Positions 2,070 to 29,821 of a DNA stretch of 31,135 nt are shown here, piece by piece. Each line of letters begins with the position of its first letter. The stretch's first letter is position 1. The notes beneath the pieces were generated by a model that did not search any database, was not told the DNA's origin, and worked only from the letters and a program-made list of their open reading frames with translations. Origin of the DNA: a virus (Duplodnaviria > Heunggongvirae > Uroviricota > Caudoviricetes); the IMG/VR virus record IMGVR_UViG_644736359_000006; one strand, written 5' to 3'. The position numbers were made by a program, and so were the translations under genes.

Positions 2070-2303
2070 ATGAAATCAAAAGACACCCTAAAGTGGTTCC
2101 CTGCGCAGCTTCCTGAAGTAAGAATTATCCTAGGGGATGCTGTAGTGGAAGTAGCAAAACAGGGAAGACCTATCAATACCAGAACATTGCTTGATTACAT
2201 TGAAGGAAACATAAAGAAAAAATCATGGCTGGATAACAAAGAATTATTACAAACAGCGATATCAGTTCTTAAAGACAACCAAAATTTAAATGGTAAAATG
2301 TAA
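2070..2303 (+). CDS. ydfK: YdfK/YnaE-family small cold-shock-associated protein
   Basis: 77-aa ORF MKSKDTLKWFPAQLPEVRIILGDAVVEVAKQGRP...; AAGGAA Shine-Dalgarno about 8 nt upstream of ATG at 2070. Confidence 0.8.
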   Translation: MKSKDTLKWFPAQLPEVRIILGDAVVEVAKQGRPINTRTLLDYIEGNIKKKSWLDNKELLQTAISVLKDNQNLNGKM

Positions 2304-2618
2304 TATAATTAACTTACTTTTTTATCATTTTCCACTTTAACAACATTTTGCTCCACTTTTCCACGACCAAACAACTTGAAATCTGGTTAAAATAACACGC
2401 AACACTATTCTTCTTCCTTGAGTCCGCCTGGAACTCGAAAAACAAACCGAGTTAAAGCCATTTTTCACAAAATCGATTTTGGGTCTCACCAAAATTACGG
2501 GGTTGCATACGCATTCGTTTATTTTCGAACGTGTACATACAAATATGCACAAAAATAATCAAAATTATTTTCTGAGATGCATTATGATATGAACACCAAT
2601 TTCGTATAGAGTCTCACT

Positions 2619-3209
2619 ATGTCTCGAATTTTTGCTTACTGTCGGATATCAACGCTGGATCAGACCACCGAAAATCAACGCCGGGAAATCGAAAGTGCAG
2701 GTTTTAAAATCAAACCTCAGCAAATAATCGAAGAACACATTAGCGGCTCAGCAGCAACCAGTGAGCGTCCTGGTTTTAACCGGTTGCTTGCTCGCCTGAA
2801 ATGTGGTGATCAATTGATTGTGACAAAATTGGATCGCCTTGGTTGTAATGCAATGGATATCAGGAAAACAGTGGAACAACTGACCGAAACAGGTATCAGA
2901 GTGCATTGCTTAGCATTGGGGGGCATTGACCTGACCAGTCCAACAGGAAAAATGATGATGCAAGTAATTTCAGCAGTCGCTGAATTTGAACGAGACCTTT
3001 TACTTGAACGCACTCATTCCGGGATAGTAAGAGCCCGGGGCGCAGGGAAACGTTTTGGTCGACCACCTGTGTTAAATGAAGAACAGAAACAGGTGGTATT
3101 CGAACGGATTAAGTCAGGTGTAAGTATAAGTGCCATTGCCCGGGAATTCAAAACCTCGCGGCAAACCATTTTAAGAGCCAAAGCAAAACTTCAGACACCT
3201 GACATATAA
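2619..3209 (+). CDS. pinQ: Serine recombinase / DNA invertase Pin
   Basis: 196-aa [23 protein letters not shown]... with resolvase-type catalytic N-domain and C-terminal HTH; sits between ydfK and the tail-fibre genes as in Qin. Confidence 0.85.
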
Positions 3210-3436
3210 AAAATAATCTCGGTGTGAGATGCTTTACGTCTTCCAAGCCCCCTTCCTTGCCGTAAATGGAAAGATACATCTAATTATAGAATTTATATGT
3301 TTTACCCTACGGCAGTGCTGGCCATTCAATATCCTGTGCAGTTGACGTATCAACACGGTTCAGCAACACCCGATACTTTTTCCTGGCTTCCAGCAACGGG
3401 GTTTCTTCCTCCGTTGCATATACAGCTCACCTTTTT

Positions 3437-3730
3437 TCACCCACGATTAACCAACAGCCAGATCAGCAGACACGCCACCACCGGCACAGCAAAATCCATC
3501 AGGCTTGCCACATCCCAAACACGCGGATCAAAACCGCCCCACCACGGCATGTTAATCCGCTTGCCATGCCCGAACATTTCAATCCAGCGATATTCTGCCT
3601 GGGTGTGTTCACGCGCAATGAAGAACGTACAACCAGCTATCGCCCCATAAGCCCAGTTTCCGGTAAAAAGACCAACCAGTGTCTGCGCAGCCACAGCACA
3701 AAGCGCATGAAGAAAAGGTGTTATATCCAT
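3437..3730 (-). CDS. Hypothetical small membrane protein
   Basis: 97-aa ORF with two hydrophobic segments; AGGAGG Shine-Dalgarno directly upstream of ATG at 3730; family not recognised. Confidence 0.45.
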   Translation of the reverse strand: MDITPFLHALCAVAAQTLVGLFTGNWAYGAIAGCTFFIAREHTQAEYRWIEMFGHGKRINMPWWGGFDPRVWDVASLMDFAVPVVACLLIWLLVNRG

Positions 3731-4736: not shown

Positions 4737-7114
4737 TATATTATCTCTCCCATTTGCGCATCGGTTAATTCTTTATGCCATATTCTAAAATTCCTGATAT
4801 AACCAAATAAATGACGTAAGCCGGCTGTAGTCTGGCCTCCAATCCTTATACCTGTAGCACCACTAACACTCTTCCACGTTGTTGATGCTGGTGTTGATAA
4901 AACCCCATTGCAGCCAGCCTGAAACTTGCCATCGCTTTTTATTCTATATACAGCGATAATCTTTCTTGGGTAATTTCCAGGTGGAAATGATATTGGATTA
5001 CCAAATTGAACATATGGAGTTCCTACACTACCTGCTGTATTTCTGAATGCAAAAACAAAAGCGTCGTCTTTTGTTTTAAATCCTGTTATATCATAAATTC
5101 TAGGCGCGGAATTTGGTGCTATAGACCAATTTTTATTCACTTCAACCATGCAGGTTAAAGGTTTGCTGGCCATGTTATTTTTACAAGGCAATGTAACAAT
5201 ATCGCTTGCTCGCGTTGATGCAACTGTATCGGAAATGATAAAAGATGATGCGCATGAGCCGCCTTCAAATTGTGGTGTCGTAACATCCAAATATTCCCCG
5301 CCCAAATAAGTTCCAGGTGAAACAGGTGGAGCAATTTGGATCTGAGAGCCAACCATATTATCAATAGCTTCAGATTGATATGTAACCTCGAAATAAATCC
5401 ATCCATTAGATTCTTTCTCCGCTCGGGCGGTTATTCTTGCAGCCCCTCCTCCCGTTTTCCTAATGGACATATCTGTTATATTAAGATATGCATCTGCCAG
5501 ATAAAAATATGCGGACCCGTCATATCTTTCAAATCTTATACGACATTGTATATTAGCACTATCGCTTTTTACACGACATGATGTTGTAACATACTTTTCA
5601 GTTCCAGTAACATCGACACCTCTTCCTCCTGAAACCGCAGCGATATTCATTGTCGTATTTGTCCCAATTTTTTCGTCCTTTATTTGAAACCGCCCATAAG
5701 TAAAGCCAAACTCATCAACACCACTTTCTGTTATAGTTACACTTGTTGTAGCTCCCCACTTAGATGGCGTAAGTGAATTAAGATGATAGTTGGTTCTTTG
5801 TCCTTCAATCAGCAAACCTTCTCGTTCAAATCGCGGTTCGTCAACTTCAGCAACGGTTAATACTCCTGATTTATTAATGTATGTTGCACCTGATGCGCGT
5901 TTGAAGCTAACAACCTTATCGGATGGCATTTTAATAACATCATCACCTACAGTTATTTGCTTATAACCAGGCGAAAAGCCAGCAAGCATATCCAGTGAAT
6001 CGTTAAACGGTATCCACACATCGGGAAGCGGCTGCAAAACTTGTTTATACGGCTCCGCAGCCTGGCTTGCATACTCTCTGGCTGCGTCTTCACTTGCTTT
6101 TGCAGCCGTCTGGCTTGCAGCGGATGCTTTCGCCGAGTTAGCCGCCGCAGTCTCGCTCGCCTTTGCGTTGGTTTCACTGGTTTTTGCAGCTTTTTGACTG
6201 TTGGCTGATGCAGTGGCAGAAGAAGCCGCCGCACTTGCAGAACCAGCTGCGGCACTCTCGCTTTGGGCCGCTGCATCCTGACTGTTTTTCGCCGCAGTTT
6301 CGCTGGCTTTGGCATTCGTTTCGCTGGTCTTCGCTGCCGTCTGGCTGGACTTTGCGTTAGTTTCGCTCGTCTTCGCTGCTTTCTGGCTGTTAGCTGCAGC
6401 AGTTGCTGATCCAGCTGCTGAAGTCGCAGAACCGGCTGCCGCACTCTCGCTTTCGGCTGCTGCAGCCTGACTGCTTTTCGCCGCAGTTTCACTGGTTTTG
6501 GCATTCGTTTCGCTTGTTTTCGCTGCCGCCTGGCTGGACTTTGCGTTGGTTTCGCTCGTCTTTGCTGCTGTCTCGCTATTTTTCGCGTTGTTTTCTGATT
6601 TTTTAGCTGCTGTCGCGGAGTTTGCCGATGCAGTCTGCGAGGCCGCTGCCGCCTGTGCGCTGTTAGCTGCATGCGTTTCTGAGGTTTTCGCCGCGTTCTT
6701 CGATGATGCCGCTGCTGTTTCTGATTTCTTTGCTGCCGCTGCGCTCTGAGAGGCGGCTTCAGCGTTGCGTGCTGCTTCTTCCACCATTGCCTCAAAACGA
6801 CGCAATGCCTCCGGCATGACATCATCTTCCGTCATGGCACCGAGAAAATCATTCAGCGTACCAGGTCTGGAACCTTCATAGACGGTAATGGTTCCGGCAT
6901 GTGAAGGCGGAAAACCTTCAACCAGCAGGGTGACGCTGTACTGGCCATACTCGACATCCATGCTGTAACGCCCGGCTTCATCCGGATTTTCAGAGGCTAC
7001 CGTGTTCACCAGTACCGTGGTGCTGTTACGCTTTGCCTTCAGTTGAATAGTGCAGTTCTGTATTGGTTTTCCCGCACCATCTTTCAGCACACCTGAGATT
7101 TTTACTGCTGCCAT
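4736..7114 (-). CDS. stf: Side tail fibre protein, lambda Stf-like N-terminus, Ala/Ser/Thr-rich repeat shaft, LamG/ConA-like C-terminal domain
   Basis: N-terminus MAAVKISGVLKDGAGKPIQNCTIQLKA... matches lambda Stf; GGAG RBS before ATG 7114 (ORF track starts at upstream GTG 7120); C-terminal ...LFGYIRNFRIWHKELTDAQMGEII resembles the LamG jelly-roll end motif. Confidence 0.85.
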   Translation of the reverse strand: MAAVKISGVLKDGAGKPIQNCTIQLKAKRNSTTVLVNTVASENPDEAGRYSMDVEYGQYSVTLLVEGFPPSHAGTITVYEGSRPGTLNDFLGAMTEDDVMPEALRRFEAMVEEAARNAEAASQSAAAAKKSETAAASSKNAAKTSETHAANSAQAAAASQTASANSATAAKKSENNAKNSETAAKTSETNAKSSQAAAKTSETNAKTSETAAKSSQAAAAESESAAAGSATSAAGSATAAANSQKAAKTSETNAKSSQTAAKTSETNAKASETAAKNSQDAAAQSESAAAGSASAAASSATASANSQKAAKTSETNAKASETAAANSAKASAASQTAAKASEDAAREYASQAAEPYKQVLQPLPDVWIPFNDSLDMLAGFSPGYKQITVGDDVIKMPSDKVVSFKRASGATYINKSGVLTVAEVDEPRFEREGLLIEGQRTNYHLNSLTPSKWGATTSVTITESGVDEFGFTYGRFQIKDEKIGTNTTMNIAAVSGGRGVDVTGTEKYVTTSCRVKSDSANIQCRIRFERYDGSAYFYLADAYLNITDMSIRKTGGGAARITARAEKESNGWIYFEVTYQSEAIDNMVGSQIQIAPPVSPGTYLGGEYLDVTTPQFEGGSCASSFIISDTVASTRASDIVTLPCKNNMASKPLTCMVEVNKNWSIAPNSAPRIYDITGFKTKDDAFVFAFRNTAGSVGTPYVQFGNPISFPPGNYPRKIIAVYRIKSDGKFQAGCNGVLSTPASTTWKSVSGATGIRIGGQTTAGLRHLFGYIRNFRIWHKELTDAQMGEII
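6120..6600. repeat. Tandem 189-bp (63-codon) repeats inside stf
   Basis: Unit beginning gcactctcgcttt at 6252 recurs at 6441 (period 189 bp, ~90% identity) with a degenerate copy upstream; encodes repeated ...SESAAAGSA...ANSQKAAKTSETNAK... blocks; explains the shadow ORFs on both strands. Confidence 0.7.
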
Positions 7115-7125
7115 ATCCACTCCAC

Positions 7126-7151
7126 AAAAAAGCCCGCCTGAACCGGCGGGC
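7126..7151 (-). terminator. Rho-independent terminator after lom
   Basis: Stem gcccgcc/ggcgggc (7132-7138, 7145-7151) followed on the minus strand by a run of six U. Confidence 0.55.
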
Positions 7152-7178
7152 TGTCATAACACTGTGTTACCTGGCTAA

Positions 7179-7778
7179 TCAGAATTTATAACCGACACCC
7201 ACGATGAAACCGTCAGTGCGCCAGTCACCACTGCCGGAACCTTCATAAGCAAGGTCAATGGCCACGGATTCGGTCGGGTTAAACTGCACGCCAGCCCCCC
7301 ACGCCAGAGACGTGTTGCTGTGGCGACCGTCATCACTTCCGGTCAGCACATCGTGCGTTTTCCCCTTGTTGTCAGTTACGCGGAGATAATCCCCGGAGAA
7401 GGTCGACACACGGCTGTAAGCCATACCCGCCATCGCATACGCGCTGAACCATTCATTCACGCGCACAGACGGCCCCGCCATCACGCTGAACCAGCGGTTA
7501 CGCACGGAATCTTCATGCCAGCGGGTATCGCTGTAATGCGTTTTTTGCTCATCTTTGGCATTGGCATAACTGAATGACGTCACCAGCCCCAGCGTGTCCG
7601 TAAACTCATAACGGTATTTCACGTTAATCCCGTTCAGATCATCGCTGCCGGGAACGTTCGTCGAGGCATGAAGATACCCCGCGCTCAGCGTGGACTGATG
7701 TTCAGACGCCCATGCAGGCGCACCGGATACGGCCAGACAAATGGCTACGGACAAAATGGCGGCATAAAGTTTACGCAT
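7179..7778 (-). CDS. lom: Lom/Ail/OmpX-family outer-membrane protein
   Basis: 199-aa ORF with signal peptide, alternating beta-strand pattern and C-terminal ...GVGYKF; located between J and stf as in lambda; GAGAGG RBS. Confidence 0.8.
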   Translation of the reverse strand: MRKLYAAILSVAICLAVSGAPAWASEHQSTLSAGYLHASTNVPGSDDLNGINVKYRYEFTDTLGLVTSFSYANAKDEQKTHYSDTRWHEDSVRNRWFSVMAGPSVRVNEWFSAYAMAGMAYSRVSTFSGDYLRVTDNKGKTHDVLTGSDDGRHSNTSLAWGAGVQFNPTESVAIDLAYEGSGSGDWRTDGFIVGVGYKF

Positions 7779-7802
7779 AATTACCTCTCGCTTTTCTGCA
7801 AT

Positions 7803-7826
7803 AAAAAAGGCGTCATTTCTGACGCC
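7803..7826 (-). terminator. Rho-independent terminator after J fragment
   Basis: Stem ggcgtca/tgacgcc with tttc loop, followed on the minus strand by UUUUUU. Confidence 0.55.
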
Positions 7827-7844
7827 CGTTATGGGTTATAAAAT

Positions 7845-9148
7845 TCAGCTAATCATGATGCCTGCAGTGGCTTTCTTCATCACCACAACCAGCAAATCGC
7901 TGATACTTGCTGTGGGATACCAGCCATTTACCAGCCATGCCGATACAGAAAATTCCAGTGTCATTACACCACTGCCTGCAGGCATATCAATAACACCCGT
8001 ATATATCAGCGTATTATCCAGAGCCGTTCGGTTATAAATTTCAGCACCGTTTTTTCGTACTATCAGACGGCATGAGGAGTAGATATCAGTATGATCTTGC
8101 TCATGTTTAGCGCCACTGAATGCCACCGCCGGAATAACAATTTGCCGGTCAAACGGCTGATCGTCATAAACCCTGACGGTAATGGTCCCTGATGGCCACC
8201 GCTCCGGTGCACGGGAGTCCCGGGGGAAAGCTTTGCCCACTGTTTTAACGAGATCGCCTTCAATCTGGTTCGCGGACAGTTTTCCCAGAACCCGGCAGTT
8301 CTCGTTAATCGTGACGTTGTTGAGCGTCCCGGAGTTCGCATTCACGTTACCGCTAATATCGGCATTTTTCGCCGTCAGCCGCCCGTCCGGTGTCAGGGAA
8401 AATGCCGGAGGATTACCGCCGCTGGTAATGGTGGGAGCCGTCAGATATTTCAGGAACACTTCGTTCATGAATATCTGATCGCCCTGACCAACAAACATCG
8501 GCTTTGTGTTGCCATTCGCAGGATTAATCATCGCAATCCTGTCCGCCGCCAGCAGCACCTGACTCTGCATACCGTCAGGGGTATTCTCAATACCGGCACC
8601 AATACCCGCGATATAAAGGCGTCCGTCCTGCATCTGCTGCAGCTTCACAGCCCACATGCTGTTCAGGTTATTATTTGTATCAACCTGAACCTTCTGTATC
8701 TGCTGGATTGCCGCACTCTGGTCTTCCAGTTTCTTATTGACGGTCTGCGTGATTTCATTACTGACATCCGTGATGGACGTTCTGATTTCCGCCAGGTCAG
8801 GCGCAAGCTGACCGTTATCAATCTGCGTCCACAACTCCTGAGCCAGATGGGTTTTCCCTATCTCTCCTTTGAAAAAATTCAGATAGCCGGATGCATCATC
8901 ACTCGGCTGGCCAACAGCCTCCACGAATGCCGATTTGCCAACGGTGTTCACACTGCGGATGTAAAAATAATAATCATGGCCCGGTTTGATATTGATACTG
9001 GCGGCTATCCAGTACAGCGCCGTGCCAAGATAGCGTGCTGTGGTTTCAACCTGCCTGATATCCGCAATCCGCTTTTCCGAGAACCAGAACTCAAACTGTA
9101 CCGTCGGATCATAAACCGCAAGATGCGGCGTGGCGGTTATCTGAAAAT
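7845..9148 (-). pseudogene. Host-specificity protein J (tail tip), C-terminal ~434 codons only, 5' end removed by IS3
   Basis: Long ORF runs without a native start straight into the IS3 left end at 9149; position upstream of lom matches lambda J. Confidence 0.7.
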
Positions 9149-9204
9149 TGATCTTACCCAGCAATAGTGGACACGCGGCTAAGTGAGTAAACTCTCAGTC
9201 AGAG

Positions 9205-9513
9205 GTGACTCACATGACAAAAACAGTATCAACCAGTAAAAAACCCCGTAAACAGCATTCGCCTGAATTTCGCAGTGAAGCCCTGAAGCTTGCTGAACGC
9301 ATCGGTGTTACTGCCGCAGCCCGTGAACTCAGCCTGTATGAATCACAGCTCTACAACTGGCGCAGTAAACAGCAAAATCAGCAGACGTCTTCTGAACGTG
9401 AACTGGAGATGTCTACCGAGATTGCACGTCTCAAACGCCAGCTGGCAGAACGGGATGAAGAGCTGGCTATCCTCCAAAAGGCCGCGACATACTTCGCGAA
9501 GCGCCTGAAATGA
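9205..9513 (+). CDS. insE: IS3 OrfA (InsE), HTH transposase component
   Basis: ORF ...[31 protein letters not shown]... with C-terminal leucine-zipper-like region; first ATG at 9205, conventional start a few codons later. Confidence 0.85.
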
Positions 9514-10376
9514 AGTATGTCTTTATTGAAAAACATCAGGCTGAGTTCAGCATCAAAGCAATGTGCCGCGTGCTCCGGGTGGCCCGCAGCGGCTGGTATA
9601 CGTGGTGTCAGCGGCGGACAAGGATAAGCACGCGTCAGCAGTTCCGCCAACACTGCGACAGCGTTGTCCTCGCGGCTTTTACCCGGTCAAAACAGCGTTA
9701 CGGTGCCCCACGCCTGACGGATGAACTGCGTGCTCAGGGTTACCCCTTTAACGTAAAAACCGTGGCGGCAAGCCTGCGCCGTCAGGGACTGAGGGCAAAG
9801 GCCTCCCGGAAGTTCAGCCCGGTCAGCTACCGCGCACACGGCCTGCCTGTGTCAGAAAATCTGTTGGAGCAGGATTTTTACGCCAGTGGCCCGAACCAGA
9901 AGTGGGCAGGAGACATCACGTACTTACGTACAGATGAAGGCTGGCTGTATCTGGCAGTGGTCATTGACCTGTGGTCACGTGCCGTTATTGGCTGGTCAAT
10001 GTCGCCACGCATGACGGCGCAACTGGCCTGCGATGCCCTGCAGATGGCGCTGTGGCGGCGTAAGAGGCCCCGGAACGTTATCGTTCACACGGACCGTGGA
10101 GGCCAGTACTGTTCAGCAGATTATCAGGCGCAACTGAAGCGGCATAATCTGCGTGGAAGTATGAGCGCAAAAGGTTGCTGCTACGATAATGCCTGCGTGG
10201 AAAGCTTCTTTCATTCGCTGAAAGTGGAATGTATCCATGGAGAACACTTTATCAGCCGGGAAATAATGCGGGCAACGGTGTTTAATTATATCGAATGTGA
10301 TTACAATCGGTGGCGGCGGCACAGTTGGTGTGGCGGCCTCAGTCCGGAACAATTTGAAAACAAGAACCTCGCTTAG
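9510..10376 (+). CDS. insF: IS3 OrfB (InsF), DDE transposase catalytic domain, in -1 frame relative to orfA
   Basis: 288-aa ORF overlapping the orfA stop (ATGA) in the -1 frame; DDE-type core ...HTDRGGQY... Confidence 0.85.
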
Positions 10377-10529
10377 GCCTGTGTCCATATTACGTGGGTA
10401 GGATCAATTCACCTAAATACGAGGCATTGCTGTAGTTGAATTGCATTGCTGTATTAGCCTGACAGTGACAGAATACGATATTGACTCTGTCACTTGTGAA
10501 ATGGTCAGAATGGTTAGCAGTTATGGTGA

Positions 10530-10736
10530 TCAGTCAACCACCAGGGAATAATCCTTCGTATTCTTATCGTGCTTTACTAACGCGGCCTCAATTGCCCTGA
10601 ATGCTTCCAGAGACACTTGATGTTCTATACATGCAATTACAACATCCGGGTAACCCATCGAAATGGTGCTATTAAGCATAGTTTTTACACGAACCTGCTC
10701 CTGGGAGGGGGCATCAGTGTATTGATCTTTATGCAT
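10530..10736 (-). CDS. Hypothetical protein
   Basis: 68-aa ORF only; no motif recognised. Confidence 0.3.
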
Positions 10737-11031
10737 TTTGTCGCTCCATGCGTTTGCTCTTCACTTACGGCTAAAAATATAACGTCAAATCACTCAGCAT
10801 GAAAGAGTGAAAGATTCAGCGCGTTTCCCTTACATAATCTGTCGTTTGTATTCTCTTCAGGCATACCGGAAAGACTAGGTATTGTCACACAACCAATACC
10901 ATCGACAATCGAGATTTATACCTATTCGGTAATGTTTAAATATAACAAAACCCCGTAAAAACGAGGTTTATGGGTAATTTGTATTGTTGAATAGCATCTG
11001 ATGAGAAATTGATGCTAATACTATAAACAGA

Positions 11032-11205
11032 CTAGATTAAATCAATCTTGATATCATAGCTTTCAAGACCAGTCATTTTTTCCCGTGCAGTAAACTGGAT
11101 ACTGGTAACTTCTTTCCCGGTCTTTTTCTTAAGCTCAATGATTTTTTTTGTTATATATTCAGAAATATCTGCTTCTGTTTTTGTTTTTAACTCTTCAATG
11201 TTCAT
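11032..11205 (-). CDS. gnsB: GnsA/GnsB-family small protein
   Basis: 57-aa product MNIEELKTKTEADISEYITKKIIELKKKTGKEVTSIQFTAREKMTGLESYDIKIDLI; GAGG RBS; start set at the second ATG. Confidence 0.75.
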   Translation of the reverse strand: MNIEELKTKTEADISEYITKKIIELKKKTGKEVTSIQFTAREKMTGLESYDIKIDLI

Positions 11206-11377
11206 CATTTCCTCTTTTAGTCTGTTATGACTTTCCTGGTACACAGTAGTGTCAATTATATGGAGCAAACGTATAAAAGATAAGATGAAACATCGCAATA
11301 ATCAACATACGACGGTCTAAATTTCACACAAACAGATAAAGATGATTATCATTTATTATCAATGCATTAGAATCAAA

Positions 11378-11647
11378 TCAATTCAAGAGTCTCATTGCTG
11401 CTTCCAGAATTTCTTCTGAAGTTACATGTCGATCCGCTGCTACATAAATGACTTTATGATCTCCGGTCAGAGATGGAAACCCTGCAGCCATTACAGTGAG
11501 GTGTGTTGTTTCGCCATTTGGATATTCACGCATGATGGTGTTAACTCCGGTCATCACTGGCACTACCATTGCTGGTTCAGAGTTAAAAAAAACTATTATT
11601 TTTTTCATAATGTTACCGTAATATGTGAGTATCCATCGACTAGACAC
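11378..11647 (-). CDS. Hypothetical protein at the ynfN position
   Basis: ORF only; start codon uncertain (internal MKKIIVFF... possible); no strong RBS. Confidence 0.3.
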   Translation of the reverse strand: MSSRWILTYYGNIMKKIIVFFNSEPAMVVPVMTGVNTIMREYPNGETTHLTVMAAGFPSLTGDHKVIYVAADRHVTSEEILEAAMRLLN

Positions 11648-11652
11648 TAAGC

Positions 11653-11672
11653 AAAAAAGCTCCCGAAGGAGC
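11653..11672 (-). terminator. Candidate rho-independent terminator downstream of cspI
   Basis: Stem gctcc/ggagc with cgaa loop, followed on the minus strand by UUUUUU. Confidence 0.4.
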
Positions 11673-11879
11673 CTTCATTTTCACTTTCTTAAATCTAACG
11701 ACAGACGGCTAACATTTAAGTATTGTGAAATATTATCAAATGTAATCATCATTGATTTACAAAAGATACATTTTGCCCCGAAAGGATTCCTGTCAGAAAC
11801 ATCAAAAGATGATGTTCTATACTGAGAACCATGGCAACACGGGCATCTAAAGTGAATATGGTTTGTAATATTTTCTACC

Positions 11880-12092
11880 TCAAAGTGCCACAACATGAAC
11901 AGCCGCGGGGCCTTTAGGTCCGTTCTCAATACCAAATTCGACTTCCTGATTCTCAGTTAACGTTTTGAAATCGTTGCTCTGAATAGCTGAGAAATGGACA
12001 AACACATCTTTGCTACCATCTTTCGGCGTGATGAAACCAAAACCTTTTTCAGGGTTAAACCATTTCACTAAACCAGTCATTTTGTTAGACAT
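11880..12092 (-). CDS. cspI: CspA-family cold shock protein
   Basis: 70-aa product [38 protein letters not shown]... with RNP1/RNP2 motifs; long AT-rich 5' leader upstream. Confidence 0.85.
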
Positions 12093-12455
12093 CATTATTA
12101 CCTTTTGAAGAAGTTAGCCCTTGGGCAGAATGGTCCGAAAAAAAATATCAGAGAGAAAAACCAACAAGGAAATCTCAAGAGGTACAAATAATAAAATTAT
12201 AACAATGACTGCTTCAGATAATTTTGTAACAAACCAGAACACCATTAACGCATGATTAACCAACCATAGCAAGGATTACTTTTGTAAAGAAAAACACACG
12301 AATGAAACAATAGCTTTATTTATTAATAAAACGTGTCATTCTGTCTAATGACCTTTTATCTTACCCTTAAGATTTCAAGGATTTTGACTCATGGAAGAGT
12401 CCTTTTTATTTAAATTTCACATTCAGCGCTAAAAATAATCCGATTTAATATTAAT

Positions 12456-13483
<1,028 letters not shown>

Positions 13484-13596
13484 GGATATTTATCAGGATT
13501 TATCGGCTTCAAATCCCCGGATATGTTAAATCTTACCTCATCAGTGATGGGCACTGGCGGGAGGAGGATGTCAATCTGATAAACACAGAGGCGACT

Positions 13597-13857
13597 ATGG
13601 ATTACACAAATCTACCAAAACAAACTTTTGCTGATTTAATCGCACTCAGGCAAGCAGTCGTAGCTCTAATCAACTTGTTGCCGGAGAAGGAAAAGGAATT
13701 AGTTAAAGCGCTTCTTAACAGAACTGCCGCCGATTTTTCATCATATCCACTGACAGATGACCTTGCGGACCTTCCTGAATTAATTGCAGCGTCCGCCAAT
13801 AAGCTTACTGAAGAGATTTACCCTCCTCAAAAATCTTCACAAAATTCCTGCGAGTAA
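13597..13857 (+). CDS. Hypothetical protein, opposite strand to the lysis genes
   Basis: 86-aa ORF with GAGG RBS 6 nt upstream of ATG; 3' end overlaps the convergent 183-aa gene; could be a shadow ORF. Confidence 0.3.
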   Translation: MDYTNLPKQTFADLIALRQAVVALINLLPEKEKELVKALLNRTAADFSSYPLTDDLADLPELIAASANKLTEEIYPPQKSSQNSCE

Positions 13858-14356
13858 CTTCAATGCAATAATCGTAAAACGCCGCAAACTGCTCATCGCG
13901 GCGTTTTTTTTCATCTTCAGAAGGAATCAGCACCGACAATTTTTTATTCAGATCAGCGACGCTGCCCTCCAGTTTTTCAATGGGCGATTCAATATCATCT
14001 TTTTCTGACCGCAATGCCGTCGGTGGCGTCTTCAGAGAACCAGTAATTCTTCCCGGTAGCTTTCCTTTGTAGGTTATCCACACATTCTGCGCCTCTAAAA
14101 TTATGGGGCGCTTTTCCGGCGACTGCTCATCCCCTTCACATAACCCGGCAGCAACATCCAGGAAGACCTGTCTGATGCTCCTTCTGGCTGCTGCCTCATA
14201 AAACTCCAGCGCAGCTCCTTCAACACGGTCCATGGCGACATCCAGGCCAAAAATTTCACCGTCAAAGCGTTCTTTGTCCTGTAAGGCTACAGTTACCGTA
14301 ACTTTATTCTCAAAATTACGGACTCCTTTCACAACCAGTTCATAGTCTTGAGTCAT
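13805..14356 (-). CDS. Uncharacterised protein between holin and endolysin (ydfR position)
   Basis: 183-aa acidic ORF; GAGGAGAG RBS; starts 5 nt after the holin stop; no TM segment or signal peptide. Confidence 0.5.
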   Translation of the reverse strand: MTQDYELVVKGVRNFENKVTVTVALQDKERFDGEIFGLDVAMDRVEGAALEFYEAAARRSIRQVFLDVAAGLCEGDEQSPEKRPIILEAQNVWITYKGKLPGRITGSLKTPPTALRSEKDDIESPIEKLEGSVADLNKKLSVLIPSEDEKKRRDEQFAAFYDYCIEVTRRNFVKIFEEGKSLQ

Positions 14357-14360
14357 TGGA

Positions 14361-14576
14361 TTACTCTCCTCTCGCAGCCTTACGCCTGTCTTCTTTAATC
14401 TTGAAATAAAGATTTGTCAGATACGTCAGCATGCCAAATACCAGACTACCCAATACACCTATTGCCGCCCACTGTGAGGGCGTGACTTTATCGAGCAACT
14501 GTAAAAACCAGTAGCCAGCACTGCCTGCAGAGGTGCTGTAGGCGATGCCCGTTGTTAACTTATCCATGGATTTCAT
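14361..14576 (-). CDS. essQ: Class II pinholin, phage 21 S-like
   Basis: 71-aa product [71 protein letters not shown] with dual-start motif MKSM; GGAGGTGA RBS. Confidence 0.85.
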
Positions 14577-14666
14577 AGCCTCACCTCCGCAGATAACGGA
14601 TGGTGTACACGGTTTGGTTCGAAGAAGGAAAGAAGTTACATTAGCGTAAGGCCCGAACATCTATTC

Positions 14667-14697
14667 AAAAAGAAAAACGCCAGCAATTATTCTGGCG
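14667..14697 (-). terminator. Rho-independent terminator between AraC-family gene and holin
   Basis: Stem cgccag/ctggcg with 8-nt loop, followed on the minus strand by UUUUUCUUUUU. Confidence 0.55.
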
Positions 14698-14766
14698 TAG
14701 CTAAAAATATCGTATAATCTTACACTTCAAAAAATAACTTTATAAAATGCCATCACATCATATCTT

Positions 14767-15489
14767 CTAAGAAAATCTTGATAAATATTGGTGCGGAGGC
14801 ACACCAAAATATCCTCTAAAAACACTTACAAAATATGATGCATTGTCATACCCGCATATTCCCGCCACCTTGCCGACAGTATGGTTACTGTAGATCAATA
14901 ATCTTTGCGCCATCATCATTCGTTCTTCAAGAATTAATTTACTAAACGATAACCCTTCGTCTTTTAATTTTCTTTTTAACAAACTCTCGCTCATATATAA
15001 TCTTGAAGATATATCACAAAGTCTCCATGACGCTGAGATATCCGAGTGAATAATAGCCTTAACTTTACAACCTAAGCTATTAAGACTTCCGAACAAAAAA
15101 CTTTGCACTATTTTCTCTGAAGATAAGACAGCAAGACATGCAAGTGATATTTGATTTCTAACTACATCCACGGTTTTGCTATCACAATTCAAGCATGCAA
15201 CCAAGTTCTTTAACAATGAAAAATCTTCACATTCTACTATCAAGTATGACGGATAAAACCTTCTTACAGAAAAAGGTGAGAGTGTGTAGTTTTTAAAGAA
15301 ATCATTAACTGTTTTCTCCTCAACATCTACGATCATTAGATGATCTGTATTTGACGAAAAAAGATCTTTTAAATTGTATTCAATGAGGACAGCATTTCCT
15401 TTTTTAAACAAAATATCTTCTTTACCAATTCGGACACCAAACGAGTTCAACACCAAAATGATAGAACATATGTATGGCATATTATCCAC
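14767..15489 (-). CDS. AraC/XylS-family transcriptional regulator, AppY/Rns-like
   Basis: 240-aa ORF with C-terminal AraC-type HTH (...GKVAGICGYDNASYFVSVFRGYFGVPPHQY); AT-rich coding sequence suggests foreign origin. Confidence 0.75.
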   Translation of the reverse strand: MDNMPYICSIILVLNSFGVRIGKEDILFKKGNAVLIEYNLKDLFSSNTDHLMIVDVEEKTVNDFFKNYTLSPFSVRRFYPSYLIVECEDFSLLKNLVACLNCDSKTVDVVRNQISLACLAVLSSEKIVQSFLFGSLNSLGCKVKAIIHSDISASWRLCDISSRLYMSESLLKRKLKDEGLSFSKLILEERMMMAQRLLIYSNHTVGKVAGICGYDNASYFVSVFRGYFGVPPHQYLSRFS

Positions 15490-16758
15490 CTGATATCATT
15501 GGGGTTACACCAGGTAAGTATAGGTGGAAAATCAATATTCGCCAGTTCAACAATAAGGAAAATCTCATTGCATCACAACTATAAAACCATGTGTTTAACT
15601 CACAAAAAACAAATCATTAAACTAATCTGTTATATTATAATAGCTGCGTGCAATAATAATATTATATGCTCTTAATATTCACTTGAAATATCTTCATATA
15701 AAAACAGATTGAATAAAATCTTTTGGGGCTGGTATGTTTACCAACATTAAATTGCATCTCAATGTTTTCTTTAGCGTGAACAGGATTTTTATAAAAACTG
15801 ACACTATGAGCATCATAGCGTAGTTTTTACGATTGTAAATATCCTGCATACAGGAACTCATCACTTTCAGATGATATCGCATACAGTTAATTCACCATCA
15901 GTCTTAGAGCCAGTTCTTCCGGATAGGGATCGAAGTAATTCTGTGTAAGCAAGTAATCATTAGGATACTCACCCAGATAATGCTTCAGCAGAGTCAACGG
16001 CGCAAGAAGAGGCAATGTGCCAAAGCGATAGTTAAGTATAACCTCGCTCAACTCTTTACGCTGGCGTGTGCTTAAGTAATTACTAAAATACCCCTGTATA
16101 TGCATCAGCACATTCGTGTGATTTTTACGTGATGCTGGTTTTCTGAGAATCGCCATCAGATTATCACGATACACCTCAAAGTATGATTCAAGGTCCGCCC
16201 ACTCGTGTATTGCAGCCACAAATGGTCCCATATCTTTATAGCCTGCCTGGCTATGCGCCAACAACTGAAGCTTATAACGACTATGAAAAGCTAATAACTC
16301 TCTTCTTGATAATTTCTCCTTGTAAAGGTGATTGAGCTCATCCAAAGCAAAAACTCTTTCAATAAAATTCTCACGAAGCACTGGATCATGTAATCGCCCA
16401 TCCTCTTCAACCGGTAGCCAGGAAAACTTTTCCATCAAAGTGCTCGTAAATAGTCCCACTCCATCTTTACGACCTCGATTACCATTTTCATCATAGACAC
16501 GCACGCGCTCCATGCCACAGCTGGGAGATTTAGCACAAACCACAAACCCCGATACATCCTTTAATTTGTCCATATAAGAACGACTAAACTCTGTCATTCT
16601 CTCTGTCACATCCTCATTCTGGTCGTGGCTGAAACACATCCGTATATTTCCTTGCTTCGAGCGCACAAGTCGTAGAGCAGGACGCGGAACTGGCAGCCCT
16701 ATTGATCTTACCCAGCAATAGTGGACACGCGGCTAAGTGAGTAAACTCTCAGTCAGAG

Positions 16759-17067
16759 GTGACTCACATGACAAAAACAGTATCAACCAGTAAAAAACCC
16801 CGTAAACAGCATTCGCCTGAATTTCGCAGTGAAGCCCTGAAGCTTGCTGAACGCATCGGTGTTACTGCCGCAGCCCGTGAACTCAGCCTGTATGAATCAC
16901 AACTCTACAACTGGCGCAGTAAACAGCAAAATCAGCAGACGTCTTCTGAACGTGAACTGGAGATGTCTACCGAGATTGCACGTCTCAAACGCCAGCTGGC
17001 AGAACGGGATGAAGAGCTGGCTATCCTCCAAAAGGCCGCGACATACTTCGCGAAGCGCCTGAAATGA
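16759..17067 (+). CDS. insE: IS3 OrfA (InsE)
   Basis: Identical product to copy 1 orfA. Confidence 0.85.
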
Positions 17068-17930
17068 AGTATGTCTTTATTGAAAAACATCAGGCTGAGT
17101 TCAGCATCAAAGCAATGTGCCGCGTGCTCCGGGTGGCCCGCAGCGGCTGGTATACGTGGTGTCAGCGGCGGACAAGGATAAGCACGCGTCAGCAGTTCCG
17201 CCAACACTGCGACAGCGTTGTCCTCGCGGCTTTTACCCGGTCAAAACAGCGTTACGGTGCCCCACGCCTGACGGATGAACTGCGTGCTCAGGGTTACCCC
17301 TTTAACGTAAAAACCGTGGCGGCAAGCCTGCGCCGTCAGGGACTGAGGGCAAAGGCCTCCCGGAAGTTCAGCCCGGTCAGCTACCGCGCACACGGCCTGC
17401 CTGTGTCAGAAAATCTGTTGGAGCAGGATTTTTACGCCAGTGGCCCGAACCAGAAGTGGGCAGGAGACATCACGTACTTACGTACAGATGAAGGCTGGCT
17501 GTATCTGGCAGTGGTCATTGACCTGTGGTCACGTGCCGTTATTGGCTGGTCAATGTCGCCACGCATGACGGCGCAACTGGCCTGCGATGCCCTGCAGATG
17601 GCGCTGTGGCGGCGTAAGAGGCCCCGGAACGTTATCGTTCACACGGACCGTGGAGGCCAGTACTGTTCAGCAGATTATCAGGCGCAACTGAAGCGGCATA
17701 ATCTGCGTGGAAGTATGAGCGCAAAAGGTTGCTGCTACGATAATGCCTGCGTGGAAAGCTTCTTTCATTCGCTGAAAGTGGAATGTATCCATGGAGAACA
17801 CTTTATCAGCCGGGAAATAATGCGGGCAACGGTGTTTAATTATATCGAATGTGATTACAATCGGTGGCGGCGGCACAGTTGGTGTGGCGGCCTCAGTCCG
17901 GAACAATTTGAAAACCAGAACCTCGCTTAG
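17064..17930 (+). CDS. insF: IS3 OrfB (InsF)
   Basis: As copy 1 but ...EQFENQNLA instead of ...EQFENKNLA. Confidence 0.85.
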
Positions 17931-18299
17931 GCCTGTGTCCATATTACGTGGGTAGGATCATATAGCCATTTCCGGACATACTGGTCTGAATGTTACCCAT
18001 TCCACTAATTTGTCCATTAAAAAGTCATCTCTTTTGTGACCACCATCAAAACGAACAGCAGAACCGCCCAAACAACCGCTGATCCCAATCACAGGTTTTT
18101 TTATCATTTCCTCCCCCTTGACTAATTCATTAACACATAAACTTTGTAGTGCACGGACTAAATTGCCTTTCTGGCTTCATCACTGACAATTTTTCTGTTA
18201 TTGACTATTCCTAATATAGTAGGAAAGTTCTTTAAGTGATCGGTCGTACTCATCTATCTTTCATACTTACTCTCAACTATCAAAAGTACAGGATTTATT

Positions 18300-18824
18300 A
18301 TGAAGTTATGGCCTGTGTTGACTGGCATTGCACTCTCTTTCACTCTTATAGCATGTAAGGCTCCGACACCACCTAAAGGTGTGCAGCCGATTACAAATTT
18401 TGACGCCAACCGCTACCTCGGAAAATGGTATGAAATAGCTCGCCTCGAGAACTGGTTCGAACGTGGTCTGGAACAGGTCAGCGCTACTTATGAAAAACGG
18501 AACGACGGAGGGATTCGCGTACTTAACCGTGGATACGATCCAACGAAAAACAAATGGAGCGAGAGCGAAGGTAAAGCATACTTTACTGGAGATACTAAAA
18601 CTGCAGCGTTGAAAGTTTCGTTTTTTGGCCCCTTCTATGGTGGCTATAATGTAATCAAACTGGATGATGAGTATAAGTATGCTCTTGTCAGTGGTCCGAA
18701 CAGAGAATACCTATGGATTCTGGCAAGGACCCAAACTATTCCAGATAATGTAAAAGCAGACTATGTGCGTACCGCTCAAAAGTTGGGATTCAATGTCAAT
18801 GAACTATTATGGGTTAAACAATAA
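18300..18824 (+). CDS. blc: Bacterial lipocalin Blc-like outer-membrane lipoprotein
   Basis: 174-aa ORF with lipoprotein signal (LIAC) and lipocalin motifs ...FDANRYLGKWYEIARLE...KVSFFGPFYGGYNVI...; diverged from chromosomal Blc (judged from memory, not aligned). Confidence 0.8.
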   Translation: MKLWPVLTGIALSFTLIACKAPTPPKGVQPITNFDANRYLGKWYEIARLENWFERGLEQVSATYEKRNDGGIRVLNRGYDPTKNKWSESEGKAYFTGDTKTAALKVSFFGPFYGGYNVIKLDDEYKYALVSGPNREYLWILARTQTIPDNVKADYVRTAQKLGFNVNELLWVKQ

Positions 18825-18979
18825 AATCCCCACCCGAAATGATACTTATTAGAAAAAAACCAGCCTTTGGGGAGGCTGGCTAAATCAGGAAATAAGCTGT
18901 TATATGATAATAACTACGTTGCGATTCCAACATTTAAAATGTTAGACTAATGAAAATCAGACAGCAACTTTTCCTTTAA

Positions 18980-19372
18980 TTATTTCGAACAATCAGCATC
19001 CATCTCCAATCGGAGATCCAACACCATCAGCATGCCCTCCACTACGCCCTCAGCTTTCTGGAGCATCCTGCCAACCCAACAATCAGATCGCCCATGCTTA
19101 CGTGCAAGCGCCATAAAAGTCATGCCGCCGACATAATAGTCCACCAATAAATCATGTAAATCGCTGTTGTTTTTTTTCAGGCGAGCCATACATTCACAAA
19201 TGATCATCGCGTCATCGTCACAGCATTGCGGACGAGATCTTACTTTTGAAGGAATTAATCCCTTAAAACCGGCGGCAATGGACGACCAGGTCACATCTTC
19301 ATGATTATTAGCCGCCCATGCCCCCCAACGCTCAAGAACCATCTGAATATCACGCATCAACTTACTCCACAA
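18980..19372 (-). CDS. quuQ: Late-gene antiterminator Q (QuuD/QuuQ family)
   Basis: ORF ...[75 protein letters not shown]...; alternative start at 19357. Confidence 0.7.
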
Positions 19373-19374
19373 AA

Positions 19375-20025
19375 TTAGGCCAGCACACCAATTGCCAGCG
19401 CGCGATCGATAAATCGAAAAATCAGCTCCAGTTGGGAGCCATACTTCTCTTCAAATGCCACGGTATCCGTATGCAACTCGTCGTGATGCTTTCTGCACAA
19501 AGGCAAAACAAAGAGATCATGTGCTTTGGTTCCCATTCCGCCCTGCCCGTGACCAATCAGATGATGCGGATCGTCGGCTGGCATACCGCAGCAAGCACAC
19601 GGCTGTGTCTTAACCCAGCGTGTGTATTTCTCCTTAACCCACCGGTGACGTTTAGGCAGCTTCATGAAAGATTCCGGAGACTCTGGATCAACGGTGATGC
19701 TTACCACCGTCTTTTCCTGTGATGGGTTTTGTTGCTGGTGGGCGTGAGGCAACGGTGCAAGATTTTTTGTGCGCTGTTTCAATATGCTGGTGGCGGTCTG
19801 CTCTCCCGGTACGATGTCGCTTTCGCGGTACACCGAGCAGATTTTTTCCGCTGGTAATCCCAGCGAGCGACGTAATACCGCTTCCGGTAGCGCGTCCGCC
19901 AGCTGATTGCGGACCGCCCACCAGGATACCCGGGTATTGTGGAATACCGGCATGGATTCACGGCCCGGCTTAACGACCACCAGCCCAAGTTCCGGTACCA
20001 GAACAGGTCGAAGTAATACCCGCAC
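19375..20025 (-). CDS. DUF968-like nuclease-domain protein (YdfU-like)
   Basis: C-terminal ...[46 protein letters not shown]...; N-terminal half unrecognised; GC-rich with several overlapping shadow ORFs. Confidence 0.5.
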
Positions 20026-20995: not shown

Positions 20996-21607
20996 AGCCT
21001 GCTTCTCCTTGCCTTTCGGCACGTAAGAGGCTAACCTACATGTGTCTAGCATGAAATTGGCCTCAGATTAATGTTAAGCGTCTTGCAGGACGCGTAATGT
21101 TAACTGGGGCTTTTCTCTATCTGCCGTTGGTGTTCATGCCCGAGGCAGATAGCCTCAAGCACCCGCAGCCATTCTACTTAACTACCGTTACCTCTCCAAT
21201 ATGAAATCAATCAGAAAGGTGATCCATAAGAACAATAACAAGACAATAAATTGCCATTACAGCCACAATAGCCAGCGTGCATTTGAGAACCAGCACATAA
21301 ATCTCCTGCTCTTGACGTATACAGGCACTGATAAATATGTGTCTTCGTGCTCGTTACTTCAATACGTAAGCGTCAGTTGCGCGTAATCAAATCAGACAAC
21401 CGACTTTAAACCAGGGACAAACAGCAGGTAAAATAATCAAACGTTATTTTAAGCCATATCATGGCTGCAAGATTTCCTCTAATTTCAACAAGATGAGCAG
21501 GTCATTGCTTGCACTGATGACCTGCTCATTAATCATGATTATTTGAAAATTAAGGTAGGCGTACTATATATAGAAACACTGCTACGCTCCGTTGGCATAA
21601 TATAAAA

Positions 21608-22294
21608 TCATTCCTGGCCTTCTTTACCGTAGTGGAGTTGACCAATTTTGATTAGAGGGCGTCCCTGAGATTTGCGGTGTAGATTGGTATCGCGCAGTGA
21701 ATACACGCAGCCACAATATTCCTGCTGATAGAATTGTTCGCGCTTGCTGATTTCAATCATGCGGGAAGAGCCGCCCTGCTTTCGCCAGTTATAATCCCAG
21801 TACACCATGCCCGGATAATACGCGACGGCTCGCCGTCCACAGTCGTTAACCTGCTGCATATTTTTCCAGCGTGAAATGCCCAGTGAGCTACTGATCACAC
21901 TGAAACCATTTTCAGCGGCATACAGCGCAGTCCGCTCAAAACGCATGTCAAAACACATGGTACAACGGATCCCTCGTTCAGGCTCCCATTCCATTCCTTT
22001 GGCTCGCTCAAACCAGTTGTCTGTGTCGTAATCAGCATCAATAAATGGCACGCCGTGTTGTTTAGCAAAGCGAATATTCTCATCCTTACGAATTAAATAC
22101 TCTTTCTGAGGATGAATGTTCGGGTTGTAGAAAAAGATGGTGTAGTCGATTCCCGAGGCCTGAAGCGCCTCCATCACTTCACCGGAACATGGAGCACAGC
22201 AAGAGTGCAGTAATAGTTTTTTTGCCCCGTTTGGGAGCTCCAATTTGGGGCGTTTGAAATCAGCAACAGTCATAAATGTGTTTATGAGGTTCAT
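21608..22294 (-). CDS. QueH-like (DUF208) epoxyqueuosine reductase homologue
   Basis: Motifs [12 protein letters not shown] near the N-terminus and [10 protein letters not shown] near the C-terminus; start codon uncertain (ATG 22294 or 22273, or GTG 22387), none with a clear RBS. Confidence 0.5.
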
Positions 22295-22326
22295 GAAAAT
22301 AGCAAAAAGTGTAGCATCAGAACGGG

Positions 22327-22560
22327 CTATCGGAAACAGATGTCTAAATCTGGTAATGTCTGCTTTTGATGCAAAGCAGACAACCACGGCAGCGCACGAA
22401 AATCAGCTATAATGTCGGGATTAATAATCGGGTGACGTCCATCACATAGCGAATGTTCCTCTTTCCTGATATCGCTAAATATCGACCATTCGTCATTCTT
22501 ATCGAACCAGAGCATGCGACTGCCACAGCACATGTCGAGAATGGTAGCCGATGTACTCAC
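22327..22560 (-). CDS. Small ORF with DMCCGS motif, possibly 5' part of a frameshift-split gene
   Basis: GTG start overlapping the upstream stop (GTGA) with GAGGTGA RBS; product ...[19 protein letters not shown]...; frame overlaps the QueH-like frame by ~60 nt. Confidence 0.3.
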
Positions 22561-22979
22561 AGCATCACCTCCCGATAATTCCCCTGATAAAACGTCAGAA
22601 CACGCTGCATAACTTCGCTCTTCCGGCACTCGCGACAGATTATGTTTAGACGACTGTCGTAGCGGCGTATTTCTCCATCAGGTAATGACCAGATAAGGTC
22701 CGGATCAACCACAGCAGGTTTCTTCACCTTTGCCCTCGAGAGTTTTTTGCGGGCGTTTTGCCAGTCCTTACGCGCCTGTTCAGACGGGAATAACCCGTAG
22801 CCGGAGTTGTATACATCGCCACTGGCTACCAGCTCTCTGGCAAGAACGCTCATCAGATATCTAGTCGCACCTGTTTTAGCTTCCAGTTGCCGTAACGTCT
22901 CACGACCGCTCTGGCGCACGAGTTCCACCACCTGCCCTTTAATTTTTTCCCGCTCTTCTTGTGTAAAAACTTTTGCCAC
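22557..22979 (-). CDS. Hypothetical protein, possible DNA-binding
   Basis: 140-aa basic ORF with C-terminal ...ICRECRK... cysteine pair; family not recognised. Confidence 0.45.
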   Translation of the reverse strand: MAKVFTQEEREKIKGQVVELVRQSGRETLRQLEAKTGATRYLMSVLARELVASGDVYNSGYGLFPSEQARKDWQNARKKLSRAKVKKPAVVDPDLIWSLPDGEIRRYDSRLNIICRECRKSEVMQRVLTFYQGNYREVML

Positions 22980-29497: not shown

Positions 29498-29569
29498 TGT
29501 TCAACTGTCGCCGGTTGTGACTGGTATTCTGCAACCGGCGCTCGTCTGATGTAAGAGATAAAGAAATCG

Positions 29570-29821
29570 ATGAGCGAAGTAATCATGATTGTCTCTCCCG
29601 GCAAATGGGTATCCGAAGAGCAGTTAATTGCGCTGAAAGGAATAAAAAAAGGTACGTTAAAAAAGGCCCGGGAAAAATCGTTTATGGAAGGAAGGGAATA
29701 TAAGCATGTCGCTCATGACGGTATGCCATGGGATAACAGTCCATGCTTTTACAACCTGGAAGAAATTGATCGCTGGATTGAGCGCCAGGCATCAGCGAGA
29801 CCAAGACGTCATCTTACTTGA
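29570..29821 (+). CDS. xis: Excisionase-like protein
   Basis: 83-aa ORF immediately upstream of int; basic, small; family recognition moderate. Confidence 0.55.
   Translation: MSEVIMIVSPGKWVSEEQLIALKGIKKGTLKKAREKSFMEGREYKHVAHDGMPWDNSPCFYNLEEIDRWIERQASARPRRHLT

Follow-up and report, generated by a model that had tools for sequence, protein, structure and literature searches.

Two intact copies of the insertion sequence (IS) IS3, separately inserted in a Qin-like cryptic prophage of an Escherichia coli B-type chromosome, serve, with a probability that we put at about 0.9, as the substrate for homologous deletion of the prophage segment that carries the lysis and cold-shock genes. The prophage lies in a stretch of 31,135 nucleotides (IMG/VR virus record IMGVR_UViG_644736359_000006), which we call the window; RefSeq annotation of identical DNA places it between ydfJ and rspB. 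Since the two copies are 1,258 bp long, 99.84% identical, in the same orientation and 7,554 bp apart, they constitute a substrate for homologous recombination. One crossover anywhere within the IS would remove one IS3 together with the 6,296-bp segment between the copies (10407-16702) and would leave a single, sometimes hybrid, IS3. A sequence-only reading of the window had predicted such a deletion, with loss of the holin, endolysin, spanin, cspI and gnsB, and we found its product in 21 public genomes.

A scan of the window for repeats returned a single long direct repeat, whose two occurrences start 7,554 bp apart, and no inverted ones, so both IS3 copies lie on the + strand. When extended base by base, the repeat covers 9147-10406 and 16701-17960, and identity collapses outside it on both sides. 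IS3 proper starts TGATCTTACCC and ends GGGTAGGATCA (TGATC...GATCA), the two additional shared bases (AT) to its left being flank rather than element. Copy A (9149-10406) and copy B (16703-17960) are each full length at 1,258 bp. The sequence-only reading had described two directly oriented IS3 copies at 9149-17960, about 7.5 kb apart, and had named inverted orientation as contrary evidence; its outer coordinates proved exact, and realignment gave the direct orientation. The copies are identical at 1,256 of 1,258 positions (99.84%), and a repeat of this length and identity cannot have arisen by chance.

In its contents, too, each copy is an ordinary IS3. In copy A, InsE is encoded at 9214-9513 and InsF at 9510-10376; the two reading frames, orfA and orfB, overlap at ATGA with orfB in the -1 frame, and RefSeq annotates a programmed frameshift (predicted) on identical DNA. 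Pfam searches identified HTH_Tnp_1 in InsE (5e-10), and rve, the DDE domain (E=5e-28), rve_2 (5e-22) and HTH_21 (2e-12) in InsF. The terminal inverted repeats are imperfect, with 28 of 40 terminal positions matching, and the ends are TG...CA. The 3-bp target-site duplication of IS3 was found as TAT/TAT around copy B (16700-16702 and 17961-17963) and as ATT/ATT at the site of copy A in strain EC931. As far as sequence can tell, both elements thus show every IS3 feature that was examined. Many genomes contain an element that is 100% identical to copy A and is annotated 'IS3-like element IS3 family transposase', and IS3 was found in 4,685 of the 5,426 complete E. coli genomes that formed the set searched throughout this work. 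REL606 (NC_012967.1) lies outside this set.

Base-by-base comparison showed that copies A and B differ at exactly two positions, where the sequence-only reading had noted at least two substitutions. At IS3 position 1214, copy A has A (10362) and copy B has C (17916), which gives the InsF K/Q difference already noted there, with K285 in copy A and Q285 in copy B. At position 200, copy A has G (9348) and copy B has A (16902). This base difference had been read as an S/N change; the substitution itself is real, but the amino acid change exists only in a spurious overlapping open reading frame (ORF, 9290-9508), and the substitution is silent in InsE (CAG/CAA, both Gln).

The genome set was queried with 1 kb from the left of copy A joined to 1 kb from the right of copy B. 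Twenty genomes had these flanks exactly one annotated IS3 (1,258 bp) apart, within a span of 3,258 bp. EC24, which has an IS1 inside its surviving IS3, is a further case and brings the total to 21 of 5,426. The layout in these genomes is a remnant of the phage tail-tip gene J (J'), one IS3 and a DUF523 remnant, with 7,554 bp lost. The locus of a laboratory 'E. coli B', CP115178, showed 0 differences over 9,258 nt from the predicted product, composed of the left flank, copy-B alleles and the right flank. CP115178 and five drug-resistant derivatives of it are among the deletion genomes, which otherwise include human, poultry, milk, seawater and wastewater isolates collected on several continents. 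The left junction between J' and IS3 is present in 27 genomes, 6 with two copies and 21 (about 78%) with the deletion. The two-copy genomes are ATCC 11303, B-DolR, AS19, NCTC10537, TUM10008 and a record labelled ATCC 8739. From 7000 to 20000 the window is 100% identical to the E. coli B strains ATCC 11303, B-DolR and NCTC10537, and differs from AS19 by two bases only. An assembly artefact as the source of the two-copy form was considered and rejected, as six independent assemblies have the form and the two single-nucleotide polymorphisms (SNPs) that distinguish the copies are the same in the B-lineage genomes.

IS3 positions 200 and 1214 were then used to type the fetched loci. The parental, two-copy loci carry (G,A) in copy A and (A,C) in copy B of the window, and (G,A) in copy A and (A,A) in copy B of TUM10008. 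The surviving IS3 carries (A,C) in CP115178 and MIN14, (G,C) in strain C and E100341, (G,A) in H1827/12, Ec-RL2-1X and FDAARGOS_1250, and (A,A) in WP4-S18, E4 and EC6563. The (G,C) form is a hybrid, with position 200 from copy A and position 1214 from copy B, and therefore requires an exchange inside the IS. The four allele combinations are spread over both alleles of a flank SNP at window position 8313. There must have been at least two independent crossovers, one to the left and one to the right of position 200, and there were probably four or more.

These junctions and alleles also bear on the idea that the single-IS3 genomes arose by transposase-mediated adjacent deletion, that is, by intramolecular transposition of one IS3 end. 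Deletions flush with an IS3 end do exist at this locus, both to the left of copy A in the window and in TUM10008, where 147 bp are missing. However, all 21 deletion genomes share the exact left junction of copy A and right junction of copy B, and an attack by an IS end would have had to strike the same base each time; the hybrid alleles of strain C and E100341 (G at 200, C at 1214), moreover, need an exchange within the element. We therefore consider adjacent deletion a very unlikely source of the single-IS3 genomes.

Several points weigh against homologous deletion between the copies, or at least against a simple account of it. AS19 has (A,A) in both copies, and the IS3 at the site of copy A in EC931 has (G,C), so that gene conversion involving the remaining IS3 copies of a genome, or artefacts of polishing, could partly blur the allele combinations. 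For this reason the number of independent deletions is bounded only from below, at two or more. Within AS19-RrmA- (CP027430; fetched locus 2248-3507 and 9802-11061), each copy took one allele of the other, and the (A,A) pair reflects either two-way gene conversion or an assembly-polishing artefact. The CP115178 parent and its five derivatives carry the deletion, but the sibling B-DolR (CP117044), whose stated origin is the same strain, retains both copies. Because the deletion cannot revert, this conflict implies a mixed stock or a mislabelled pedigree. Finally, we infer the dependence on RecA, the release of a 7,554-bp circle and any effect on fitness, and the first two of these count among the points of doubt. 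The circle is one possible route, and unequal sister-chromatid exchange, slippage or single-strand annealing could give the same chromosome without it.

The origin of each copy was examined at its borders. A TAT lies on either side of copy B, and removal of the IS3 and one TAT restores an intact ORF of 319 aa with the Pfam domains 2-thiour_desulf and DUF1722. The same DUF523-DUF1722 gene is uninterrupted in strains 127 and EC931, with a single TAT at the empty site. The paired TAT, the restored ORF and the empty site in relatives mark copy B as a simple insertion. Copy A adjoins, without a target-site duplication, the J' remnant on its left (7845..9148, - strand), a 3' remnant of about 1.3 kb that RefSeq annotates on identical DNA as 'phage tail tip domain-containing protein, missing N-terminus'. 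It has the triplet AAT to its left and ATT to its right, where the gnsB side of the prophage follows. In EC931 an IS3 shares this right junction exactly, has ATT/ATT around it, and is preceded on its left by a DUF1441 (small-terminase-like) gene and a large-terminase fragment. As EC931 keeps the duplication at the same right junction, copy A was originally a simple insertion as well.

The order of events read from these borders is as follows. Copy A landed, with duplication of ATT, in the interval from the terminase-small-subunit-like gene to the gnsB side of the prophage. In the B lineage, what lay to its left (terminase to tail) was later lost, flush with the IS end, as far as the inside of J; this loss could be an adjacent deletion or a recombination with a third copy that has itself been lost. 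Copy B inserted into the DUF523-DUF1722 cargo gene between the Q antiterminator gene and the lysis cassette, duplicating TAT. Judged from their junctions, copies A and B are the products of separate transposition events.

The same borders were decisive for two other accounts of the locus. One holds that IS3, cargo and IS3 form a composite transposon that was inserted as one piece with the lysis and cold-shock genes, and the two full-length IS copies in the same orientation, with intact outer ends around cargo, do have that appearance. Yet the whole unit has no duplication around it, its outer flanks being AAT (left) and TAT (right), whereas each IS has its own signature (TAT/TAT for copy B, ATT/ATT at the site of copy A in EC931). 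The same cargo occupies the same prophage position without IS3 in strain 127 and with a single IS3 in EC931 and GF4, and searches of the genomes and of plasmids found no IS3-flanked cargo at other E. coli loci or on plasmids. As an origin, the composite transposon is so improbable that it is effectively refuted. The other account takes the single-IS3 arrangement as ancestral, the two-copy form having been built from it, for instance when an IS3-bearing circle re-integrated or through recombination with DNA from outside. Single-copy genomes (21) do outnumber two-copy genomes (6). However, copy B has a perfect 3-bp duplication, and its removal restores a gene that is intact in relatives; the cargo, furthermore, stands in normal lambdoid order (Q, cargo genes, holin, lysozyme, Rz), as in the IS-free strain 127. 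We give this account almost no credence. Two separate insertions followed by deletion between them remain our reading of the locus.

The sequence-only reading had also called the region a predictable hotspot of structural variation, and this was borne out through more routes than it had proposed, since the BL21 family, GF4, TUM10008 and strain 300490 have rearrangements of their own. The only IS3 of Qin in BL21(DE3) is missing 31-33 nt at its start and joins the tail-fibre gene at window position 6664-6665. The underlying deletion of 10,070 bp (window 6666-16735) has a 2-nt TA microhomology and ends at IS3 nt 32-33 of copy B (16734-16735). Lost with it are part of stf, lom, J', copy A, all of the bracketed segment and the left inverted repeat of copy B. 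This junction was found in 28 genomes, the BL21 family, and it is a product of illegitimate recombination, not of IS3-by-IS3 exchange.

TUM10008 lacks 147 bp (window 16556-16702) up to the very base at which the intact left end of copy B begins, the signature of transposase-mediated adjacent deletion. Of copy A, GF4 has retained no more than the first 104 nt. In strain 300490, copy A lacks its first 160 nt and is fused to lom (window equivalents 7527/9309; fetched locus 627-1724), and an extra, inverted IS3 lies at the 3' end of the blc-like gene (window about 18800; fetched locus 8859-10113). The arrangement in 300490 indicates several independent IS3 hits on this prophage interval. In an evolution experiment with a REL606 derivative, Qin deletions were reported, one of which ended at insE-3, the IS3 of this locus (PMC5419217). 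Our literature searches found these Qin deletions ending at insE-3 in REL606-derived lines only, and no description of the specific polymorphism reported here.

Some further features of the prophage were recorded. The tail-fibre gene contains, at window 6143-6622, two tandem copies of a 189-nt unit with 81% identity and a 21-nt sub-period (9 related 60-nt copies); the BL21-type deletion begins about 40 nt downstream (6665/6666). Two more segments of the window are missing from BL21(DE3): 21322-22682 (1,361 bp, the region of a queH-like gene), with a 2-nt microhomology, and 27521-29608 (2,088 bp, inside an exonuclease ORF of 823 aa at 27026-29497), with the 7-nt microhomology GTATCCG. These additional losses imply that the Qin prophage of the window strain is less decayed than that of BL21. 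A match to the J' flank at about 549 kb had suggested an inversion or translocation in BL21, and this was rejected when the match turned out to be the J' remnant of DLP12. The Qin J' remnant (window 7800-9148) is 99.7% identical over 1,350 nt to the DLP12 J' remnant in BL21(DE3), which lies ~1 Mb away in inverted orientation (fetched BL21(DE3) locus 11651-13000). The J' pair in Qin and DLP12 is a potential substrate for a large chromosomal inversion.

Gene contents were assigned from Pfam and from RefSeq annotation of identical DNA, and they place the holin, lysozyme, Rz, cspI and gnsB inside the segment, so that the lysis cassette and cold-shock genes are bracketed by the two copies as had been described. 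From left to right, and on the - strand unless noted, the segment holds a gene for a hypothetical protein of 68 aa (10530-10736), gnsB (11032-11205), ynfN (11378-11608), ymcF (11681-11869), cspI (11880-12092), rzpQ (DUF2514; 12456-12953), the lysozyme gene rrrQ (12950-13483), a small ORF on the + strand (13597-13857), a ydfR pseudogene (14021-14356), the holin gene essD (14361-14576), a gene for an AraC-type HTH protein (14767-15480) and the 3' part of the split DUF523-DUF1722 gene (15887-16702). The 5' part of this gene (2-thiouracil desulfurase/YbgA-like), which copy B separates from the rest, lies at 17961..18107 (- strand) and is followed by the blc-like lipocalin gene (18300-18824, + strand) and the Q antiterminator gene (18980-19357, - strand). 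The interval from Q to the holin thus holds cargo: the blc-like lipocalin gene, the DUF523-DUF1722 gene and the gene for the AraC-type regulator. In Stx phages this interval is the position of the toxin genes. From its place between Q and the holin, copy B probably uncouples the lysis cassette from late transcription.

A tentative reading, which we regard as rather unlikely, is that loss of the segment was repeatedly favoured instead of being neutral decay, with the IS3 pair as a ready-made device for ejecting a hazardous prophage module. It is raised because an intact holin-lysozyme-Rz cassette, a GnsB toxin-family protein and cold-shock genes sit in the segment, and because at least three routes (IS3-by-IS3 exchange, the BL21-type microhomology deletion and the truncations in 300490 and GF4) strip parts of it, ~78% of the genomes with the J'-IS3 junction having lost it. 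The three alleles of the locus would also help to trace the pedigrees of laboratory E. coli B stocks.

Laboratory E. coli B is in any case not uniform at this locus. Both IS3 copies, together with the lysis and cold-shock genes of Qin, are still present in ATCC 11303, NCTC10537, AS19 and B-DolR. The 7.55-kb recombination deletion is found in at least one 'E. coli B' stock with its derivatives, and the BL21 family lacks 10.07 kb, including cspI, gnsB, holin, lysozyme and Rz. This bears on the choice of reference genome, on coverage drops or 'deletions' met in resequencing, and on the tracing of strain pedigrees. Deletion mediated by IS elements in direct repeat, and the stepwise decay of prophages, are textbook processes. 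What is mildly new is specific to strains, namely the three alleles among laboratory E. coli B stocks and the disagreement between the 'B' parent and its sibling B-DolR. The locus is a clean worked example of IS-driven, stepwise prophage decay and opens no new question.

Compared with known systems, the elements are the IS3 of E. coli (IS3 family, IS3 group; insE/insF), with which they share length, ends, ORF layout, 3-bp duplications and 99.8-100% identity. Nothing of substance differs: copy B is the common InsF K285Q variant (WP_085947598.1), and copy A lacks its left target duplication. The prophage resembles Qin of E. coli K-12 (gnsB, ynfN, cspI, rzpQ, rrrQ, essQ/essD, Q antiterminator, hokD, dicB), whose neighbourhood ydfJ, ydfK, pinQ ... 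dicB is shared with the window and whose gene names also occur in the RefSeq annotation of DNA identical to the window. Compared by annotation, the B-type version differs from K-12 Qin in its two IS3 copies, in its tail-gene remnants (stf, lom, J') and in its cargo genes for a blc-like lipocalin, a DUF523-DUF1722 protein and an AraC-type regulator. Deletion by recombination between direct IS copies has been described for IS1, IS150 and IS3 in laboratory evolution of E. coli and in comparisons of E. coli B strains. As in those deletions, direct repeats of ~1.3 kb are involved, one sometimes hybrid IS is kept, the interval is lost, and the event recurs across lineages; unlike in those, the interval lost here is the lysis and cold-shock segment of a prophage.

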